A DNA stretch of 1,721 nt. It comes from Escherichia coli (lineage in GTDB: Bacteria > Pseudomonadota > Gammaproteobacteria > Enterobacterales > Enterobacteriaceae). The DNA is taken from assembly GCF_003334815.1 (NCBI RefSeq), contig NZ_QOWO01000095.1. One strand, given 5' to 3'. Positions within the stretch are counted from its first letter, which is position 1; each line of letters begins with the position of its first letter. The notes beneath the pieces are model-generated. The model was not told the DNA's origin. It worked only from the letters and a program-made list of their open reading frames with translations, and searched no databases. Below, piece by piece: positions 1,333 to 1,410 of the stretch. Both the position numbers and the translations under genes were made by a program.

Positions 1333-1351
1333 GTTAATGATAATCACTATC
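1333..1351 (+). promoter_or_regulatory. Putative Fur box (iron-responsive operator) upstream of the colicin promoter
   Basis: GTTAATGATAATCACTATC matches the 19-bp Fur consensus GATAATGATAATCATTATC at 17 of 19 positions (mismatches at positions 2 and 15), counted by eye. It ends 9 nt before the -35 hexamer. This agrees with my recollection that colicin Ib expression responds to iron limitation as well as to SOS. Confidence 0.55.
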
Positions 1352-1359
1352 ATCAAATC

Positions 1360-1388
1360 TTGACATGCCATTTTCTCCTTAATAAATT
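1360..1388 (+). promoter_or_regulatory. Sigma70-type promoter of the colicin gene (-35 TTGACA, candidate -10 TAAATT)
   Basis: A perfect consensus -35, TTGACA, at 1360-1365. With a 17-bp spacer the -10 would be TAAATT at 1383-1388, which keeps the three most conserved positions. The LexA box lies immediately downstream, the usual colicin promoter arrangement. The exact -10 and transcription start are not determinable from sequence. Confidence 0.6.
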
Positions 1389-1390
1389 AA

Positions 1391-1410
1391 TACTGTATAT
1401 GTATCCATAT
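1391..1410 (+). promoter_or_regulatory. LexA operator (SOS box) overlapping the predicted transcription start of the colicin gene
   Basis: TACTGTATATGTATCCATAT: the left half, TACTGTATAT, matches the LexA consensus TACTGTATATATATACAGTA exactly. The right half is degenerate (CTG-N10-CAT instead of CTG-N10-CAG). Its position, just after the -10 and ahead of a colicin gene, fits the known SOS control of colicins. Confidence 0.7.

Follow-up and report, generated by a model that had tools for sequence, protein, structure and literature searches.

[quoted passage not shown] Extra environmental 'double locks' have been described, including IscR for colicin K and CsrA for lysis genes (PMC4675545). 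The system closest to the locus analysed here is Pcib of pColIb-P9 and of pCol1B9 from SL1344 (Mankovich 1984/1986; Nedialkova 2014; Spriewald 2015), which is the same locus with the same yagA–colicin–imm synteny. Nedialkova 2014 predicted Fur and LexA sites in the cib promoter with MEME/MAST, and both a cib-luc reporter and the ColIb protein were induced by mitomycin C, comparably by the iron chelator DTPA, and maximally by the two together (PMC3879352). In the same reporter study, cirA responded to DTPA and not to mitomycin C (PMC3879352), so DTPA is not simply an SOS inducer. Spriewald 2015 placed a putative Fur site upstream of the -35 element together with one LexA site and spoke of 'double-locking', and single-cell gfp reporters showed weak expression with either inducer alone and strong expression with both (PMC4675545). 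Later papers repeat Fur/LexA control of colicin Ib as established, and a Salmonella plasmid gene annotated 'colicin transporter', which its authors relate to cib, was approximately 11-fold up in iron depletion (PMC6567447).

Two further groups of promoters are useful for comparison. Classical Fur-repressed promoters such as cirA, iucA and fepA carry a 19-bp box of a quality similar to the one analysed here, and chelation relieves their repression. Their boxes overlap the -35/-10 elements or the start site, which is reportedly the classical arrangement (Escolar et al. 1999, cited in PMC3879352). In contrast, the box analysed here lies at about -62 to -44 and ends 8 bp short of the -35 element. 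[quoted passage not shown] On plasmid pS88 it was co-induced with the colicin Ia gene cia in iron-depleted medium, serum and urine (PMC3438092).

Fur/LexA control of the colicin Ia/Ib promoter is already known, having been published in 2014–2015, and the sequence features at the present locus are real. A preliminary description of this DNA had mentioned such co-regulation as reported for a ColIb plasmid of S. Typhimurium and had expected confirmation rather than novelty; the co-regulation is indeed published (PMC3879352, PMC4675545), and the expectation was correct. Its proposal that the toxin is produced when competitors expose the Fur-regulated receptor Cir is supported by the induction of cirA with DTPA in the same study as cib. 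The toxin is made under iron scarcity and DNA damage, as in the inflamed gut, when competitors display the Fur-repressed receptor. What the present analysis adds is that a colicin Ia haplotype shares its control elements with the tested colicin Ib promoter, that its one LexA operator is weak, which explains the need for a second lock, and that the Fur box accompanies the colicin gene in three plasmid contexts. Our main reading, to which we give a probability of roughly 80%, is that positions 1333–1410 of the window (the whole 1,721-bp stretch of DNA analysed) form the cia/cib control region of IncI-type and some IncF plasmids, in which LexA and Fur independently repress a strong σ70 promoter, with Fur as the second lock.

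The window and its colicin gene

The window derives from an IncI-type plasmid and runs from the 3′ end of yagA through a terminator and the control region into the start of a colicin Ia/Ib gene (Table 1). Many conjugative IncI-type plasmids from E. coli, Salmonella and Shigella contain it with 100% identity; in PLSDB it is matched by 1344 records, 698 of them at an identity of at least 99%. The control region is found in about 943 of 5426 complete E. coli genomes and is nearly always plasmid-borne. Chromosomal places matching the control region in E. coli genomes numbered 27, and a search of the whole window against Rfam returned nothing near threshold.

Table 1. Coordinates of the features identified in the window
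Feature	Position	Strand	Remarks
yagA, 3′ part	1..1183	+	ORF 44..1183; stop ends at 1183
Terminator-like hairpin and T run	1210..1253	+	13-pair stem at 1210–1243; from a terminator scan
Upstream edge of the portable colicin module	1306..1322		Homology starts at ~1318–1322 (IncF) and ~1306 (Salmonella Oslo)
Fur box GTTAATGATAATCACTATC	1333..1351	+	17/19 to consensus; about -62 to -44 from the predicted +1
-35 element TTGACA	1360..1365	+	Consensus; invariant in all copies including the Salmonella Oslo variant
-10 element TAAATT	1383..1388	+	4/6; 17-bp spacer from the -35; invariant
LexA (SOS) box, single, TACTGTATATGTATCCATAT	1391..1410	+	About -4 to +16; covers the predicted start
Predicted transcription start, G	1395	+	7 nt after the -10; inferred from promoter geometry
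Shine–Dalgarno sequence AAGGAGA	1449..1455	+	6 nt before the ATG; read from the sequence
Colicin Ia/Ib, first 86 codons (MSDPVRITNPGAESLGYDSDGHEIMAVDIYVNPP...)	1462..1721	+	CDS runs past the window end

The full yagA gene encodes 448 aa and occupies locus positions 3337–4683 in NZ_CP024481, equivalent to -163 to 1183 of the window. The ATG at 44 is therefore internal, and the true start lies 163 bp upstream of the window. YagA had no match in NCBIfam at E ≤ 0.001, and its sole precomputed Pfam match on record is PF27227 (Endonuc-like_C). The intergenic region between yagA and the colicin gene measures 278 bp in NZ_CP024481. Because an intrinsic terminator-like hairpin with a T run follows yagA, the colicin gene would have its own promoter within 1254–1461, with the hairpin as the predicted boundary that separates yagA transcription from it. 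A second, shorter hairpin (7 pairs, 1170–1186) spans the yagA stop upstream of the main stem.

The gene downstream, which the preliminary description had called a colicin, was identified as colicin Ia/Ib by identity to many IncI-type plasmids, of which the one inspected carries a 626-aa colicin followed by its immunity gene. The 86 codons that start with the ATG at 1462–1464 are identical to the 626-aa colicin of NZ_CP024481, and P0001 from the protein search is 100% identical and carries the Colicin_Ia (PF11504) and pore-forming (PF01024) domains. In NZ_CP024481, the colicin gene is followed by a convergent gene on the opposite strand, lying outside the window, for a 111-aa 'colicin 1A immunity protein'. 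Both features of a colicin Ia/Ib module are therefore present, i.e. the N-terminal sequence with its domains and an adjoining convergent immunity gene with no lysis gene. The part of the protein within the window does not discriminate between Ia and Ib, since ColIb-P9 shows only three synonymous differences there. The immunity gene differs, encoding 115 aa in Ib plasmids compared to 111 aa in Ia. The haplotype of the window, with C at 1354 and G at 1411, is that of a colicin Ia plasmid and not of an Ib plasmid, because the exact-haplotype plasmid that was inspected (NZ_CP024481) carries the 111-aa Ia immunity gene.

Two side observations concern the reference plasmids. The gene table of NC_017718 lists the colicin CDS at 8900–10174, whereas an intact 626-aa ORF runs from 8294 to 10174; the short CDS is an artefact of annotation, in the very strain from which the published cib results come. 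Over the 1249 bp that comprise yagA and its terminator, ColIb-P9 does not differ from the window. Beyond 1249 it has 7 differences in 221 bp of the control region, and the three synonymous ones fall within the initial 260 bp of the colicin gene. This pattern suggests a recombination breakpoint near 1250–1295 between the plasmid backbone and the colicin module.

Promoter, LexA box and Fur box

The σ70 promoter at 1360–1388 (TTGACA-17-TAAATT) matches the consensus at 10/12 positions and was called strong. The text of the accessible papers yielded no published cib transcription start, and all positions relative to +1 refer to the G predicted from promoter geometry. On the minus strand, ATGTCA-18-TATCAT (1366 to 1337) also reads as promoter-like at 9/12, and it was treated as chance since shuffled sequences are expected to give 1.4 such sites in the region. 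This site faces yagA; its -10 falls within the Fur box, and its -35 overlaps the forward one. Both of its hexamers are kept in the Oslo variant described below, and it is still probably a chance occurrence.

The LexA box matches TACTGTATATATATACAGTA at 15/20 positions and was missed by a search that allowed up to three mismatches. Its left half is perfect, while the right half reads CCAT instead of ACAG, so that the core is CTG-N10-CAT and not CTG-N10-CAG. We rebuilt a heterology index with a set of 19 LexA boxes of E. coli; its values are approximate and believed to be somewhat below published ones; on this scale the box has an index of 8.8–10.0, level with the weakest real operators of the set (recN3 and polB). 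It is nevertheless the top LexA-like site in the window, with 6 of 500 shuffles reaching its score. The box thus stands where one is expected in an SOS promoter, and its sequence falls at the weak end of real operators. A second, overlapping box at 1403–1422 (CCAT-N8-GCAG) was considered and rejected at an approximate heterology index of ~20. Unlike typical colicin promoters with their dual overlapping SOS boxes, this one has a single box, as reported for Pcib (PMC4675545). The preliminary description had placed a LexA box at 1391–1410 downstream of the -10; its coordinates and position hold, and the refinement is that it is a single weak operator. The second-best LexA-like 20-mer of the window, TACTCTTTATCTGTCCAGTT at 76–95 inside yagA, has an approximate heterology index of 11; with a broken left half (CTC for CTG) and a location in a coding region, it is probably a chance match.

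The Fur box agrees exactly in its coordinates and its 17/19 match with what had been noted before, and its two mismatches to GATAATGATAATCATTATC fall at positions 2 and 15. Elsewhere in the window there is no Fur site within three mismatches of the consensus, and 200 shuffles that preserved dinucleotide content did not yield a single one. The extended site at 1332–1352 reads as two overlapping 7-1-7 motifs (TGATAATnATTATCA), one at 1338–1352 with a single mismatch and one at 1332–1346 with two. The sequence of a Fur regulon member, i.e. a box near GATAATGATAATCATTATC or at least three NATWAT hexamers or two 7-1-7 motifs, is thus present. The position is not that of a typical member, whose box overlaps the core promoter or the start site. 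The earlier remark that the box sits upstream of the -35, and not over the core promoter, is correct, and no Fur-like hexamers that would extend the site toward or over the -35 were found flanking it.

The published promoter can be compared with the window directly. We aligned twelve copies on the -35 element, among them pCol1B9 of SL1344 (NC_017718) and ColIb-P9 (NC_002122). Pcib of SL1344 pCol1B9 equals the window over the Fur box, -35, spacer, -10 and LexA box, with one difference within 1325–1410, at 1354. Since the control elements of the colicin Ia window are the same as those of the tested colicin Ib promoter, the published results transfer to it. ColIb-P9 itself differs from the window by C1345T in the Fur box (16/19), T1354 and A1390G. 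Position 1345, where this ColIb-P9 polymorphism is common, is the free 'N' (central base) of the better 7-1-7 motif. The ColIb-P9 haplotype accounts for the frequent class of plasmids with three mismatches.

Plasmid contexts and sequence variation

In large IncF plasmids, the colicin Ia gene lies behind yacA–yacB and a 3′–5′ exonuclease gene (yacABC–cia) instead of yagA, and homology to the window starts some 12–15 bp upstream of the Fur box. Expression data exist for this context. In pS88, an IncF plasmid, cia was up 5.1-fold with dipyridyl by qRT-PCR, a change that is not significant alone (p = 0.105), and it was up 21-fold in serum (p = 0.023), 6-fold in urine and 70-fold in vivo (PMC3438092). 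As the IncF homology starts just before the Fur box and cia is iron-responsive there, the iron-responsive element lies within the short module.

A third context was found in a Salmonella Oslo plasmid (GCA_008809525), with ccdAB upstream and parG/parA downstream of the colicin gene. Its promoter (L015 1351–1539; also L016) is 83.6% identical to the window with indels, and its flanks and spacer have diverged. The copy retains the 15-nt core TTAATGATAATCACT of the Fur box, and the -35 and -10 are unchanged. A 6-bp deletion makes a better LexA box 6 bp downstream (ATGT-N8-ACAG, approximate heterology index 7.2). Because the deletion re-creates an improved LexA box, the Oslo copy suggests that selection maintains LexA control. 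The colicin Ia-type protein of this plasmid has five amino-acid changes in its first 86 residues. The Fur box is thus found in three plasmid contexts, moving along with the colicin gene.

These contexts bear on whether the Fur-like box could be a bystander in AT-rich DNA, with induction by chelators being indirect, through SOS signalling, growth phase/ppGpp or another regulator. The searchable literature yielded no fur-mutant derepression and no direct Fur binding by EMSA, footprint or ChIP for the 1333–1351 site; repressors do not usually bind upstream of the -35, and the box is not singled out by conservation at the population level. However, a 17/19 match immediately beside the promoter is extremely unlikely by chance, and the box persists in three contexts with unrelated upstream DNA, in which homology sets in shortly before the box. 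Furthermore, chelator and mitomycin C combine to the highest expression and are thus not redundant, cirA is responsive to DTPA and unresponsive to mitomycin C (PMC3879352), and the SOS gene dinB, which served as a housekeeping control in the pS88 study, was unchanged (0.69-fold) with dipyridyl while cia rose (PMC3438092). A bystander box is therefore very unlikely, while part of the chelator response could be indirect. Annotation of the site as a 'Fur box' is accepted on the basis of the motif match and the chelator experiments, from which we infer that Fur itself binds 1333–1351.

Variation among copies was assessed with a scan of metagenomes that used the -10 and the left half of the LexA box as its only anchor and returned 36 contigs; a scan of genome contigs with the -10/LexA pattern gave 0 matches. 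Together with the window and nine plasmid/genome loci, these contigs made up 46 anchor-bearing copies, and the Fur box was identical in 38 of them. Across the 19 ungapped haplotypes, variable sites amounted to 2/19 in the Fur box compared to 9/18 in the flank directly upstream of it (Fisher p = 0.013), and to 0/15 in the -35/spacer. When the Fur box was compared with the whole of the remaining non-coding sites, the difference was not significant (2/19 versus 20/77, p = 0.22). Exact conservation in PLSDB was uninformative, with similar values for the 78-bp control region (176/1262) and a 78-bp flank (193/1150). Conservation is consistent with function and not decisive, because relatedness among the copies is too close and the protein family is a very narrow one: almost all of its members share at least 90% identity, and only the Oslo copy is usefully diverged.

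The same variation weighs on a second explanation, in which Fur occludes another upstream promoter that has its -10 in the Fur box, so that iron acts there and LexA acts on the main promoter. This arrangement would give Fur the classical occlusion geometry, and the box does contain GATAAT (1339–1344) and TATCAT (1348–1353), each matching TATAAT at 5/6. However, a promoter scan at 9/12 or better found no second plus-strand promoter with a -10 in the Fur box; the best -35 partners score 3/6 or worse and there is no TG extension. The zone in which this -35 would lie (1316–1331) is the most variable stretch, and it is wholly replaced in the IncF context, which is still iron-responsive. In the Oslo variant, TATCAT has become TCTCAT. 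Moreover, a transcript from the second promoter must still pass the LexA-bound operator. Taken with these points, an occluded upstream promoter appears highly improbable.

Several other copies were observed in passing. The protein P0041 (541 aa, gene 1501–3126, L012–L014; about 20 contigs) was tried as a distant homologue for footprinting and rejected, as it is an IS-transposase::colicin chimera with no promoter homology. Its N-terminus (MDEKQLQALANELAKNLKTPEDL...) resembles a transposase and continues in frame into the colicin Ia/Ib body, and one of its sources names Enterobacter hormaechei; the chimera presumably arose when an IS inserted and the Fur/LexA control region was lost. The IncF plasmids CP128589 and CP128591 (locus 2601–2831) hold promoter remnants without an annotated colicin gene downstream, and in CP128591 the remnant is followed by an IS66 element (tnpA/tnpB/tnpC). 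Many small plasmids (34–48 kb) likewise match the control region without an annotated colicin. In ERZ1108166 NODE-1390 (L023), the T run of the spacer differs in length by 1 bp, which shifts the -35 and the Fur box by one base relative to the -10, and the sequence downstream of the LexA box is unrelated, so this is likely a disrupted copy.

Proposed repression by LexA and Fur

In the main reading, LexA bound to the single sub-optimal operator over the start would block initiation until RecA-stimulated cleavage. Fe2+–Fur would occupy the 19-bp box, whose centre lies near -53, and its two overlapping 7-1-7 motifs would probably each take one dimer; as long as iron is abundant, Fur would lower the activity of the promoter. 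Most colicins have paired overlapping boxes. With the one weak operator present here, LexA as the only repressor would allow high basal leakage, and a second lock would be needed. That lock would be Fur, where colicin K has IscR, and full expression would require DNA damage and iron limitation together.

It is also conceivable that Fur near -53 acts mainly by stabilizing LexA or the repressed architecture, as a cooperative double-locking like that of IscR at colicin K. A co-repressor that stabilizes LexA is documented there (cited in PMC4675545), and a weak single LexA box would benefit from the help of Fur. However, the centres of the Fur and LexA sites are 58.5 bp apart, about 5.6 helical turns, and thus out of phase, and partial induction by each inducer alone fits independent repressors. 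In addition, the Oslo LexA box has moved by 6 bp while the position of Fur shows no compensating change. We consider cooperative stabilization the least probable of the explanations discussed.

How Fur would repress from its upstream position is not obvious, as the preliminary description had remarked; the remark stands, and we found no paper that resolves the point. From -62 to -44, Fur would be unable to occlude the -35/-10 elements directly. In the mechanism that we prefer, Fur has a typical footprint of about 6 bp past the box on each side and would thus cover roughly 1327–1357 and abut the -35. It could then occupy the -40 to -60 DNA used by the C-terminal domains of the RNA polymerase alpha subunits and for upstream contacts or wrapping; this block of the alpha C-terminal domains is conjecture, given that the covered DNA matches an UP element poorly. 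Fur would thereby weaken polymerase recruitment in a graded way, with the core promoter not fully occluded, and such weakening fits the graded, multiplicative response of the reporters. We tentatively suggest a non-occlusive repression from near -53, by displacement of the alpha C-terminal domains and upstream contacts or by DNA bending, in which a graded Fur 'dimmer' multiplied by a weak single LexA operator would constitute a natural analogue AND-gate; this form of the mechanism is possible and on balance doubtful. The DNA that Fur would cover is AT-rich (74%). It was considered as an UP element and rejected, since it scores 6/14 with +1 as predicted and reaches no more than 9/14 when +1 is moved to 1397.
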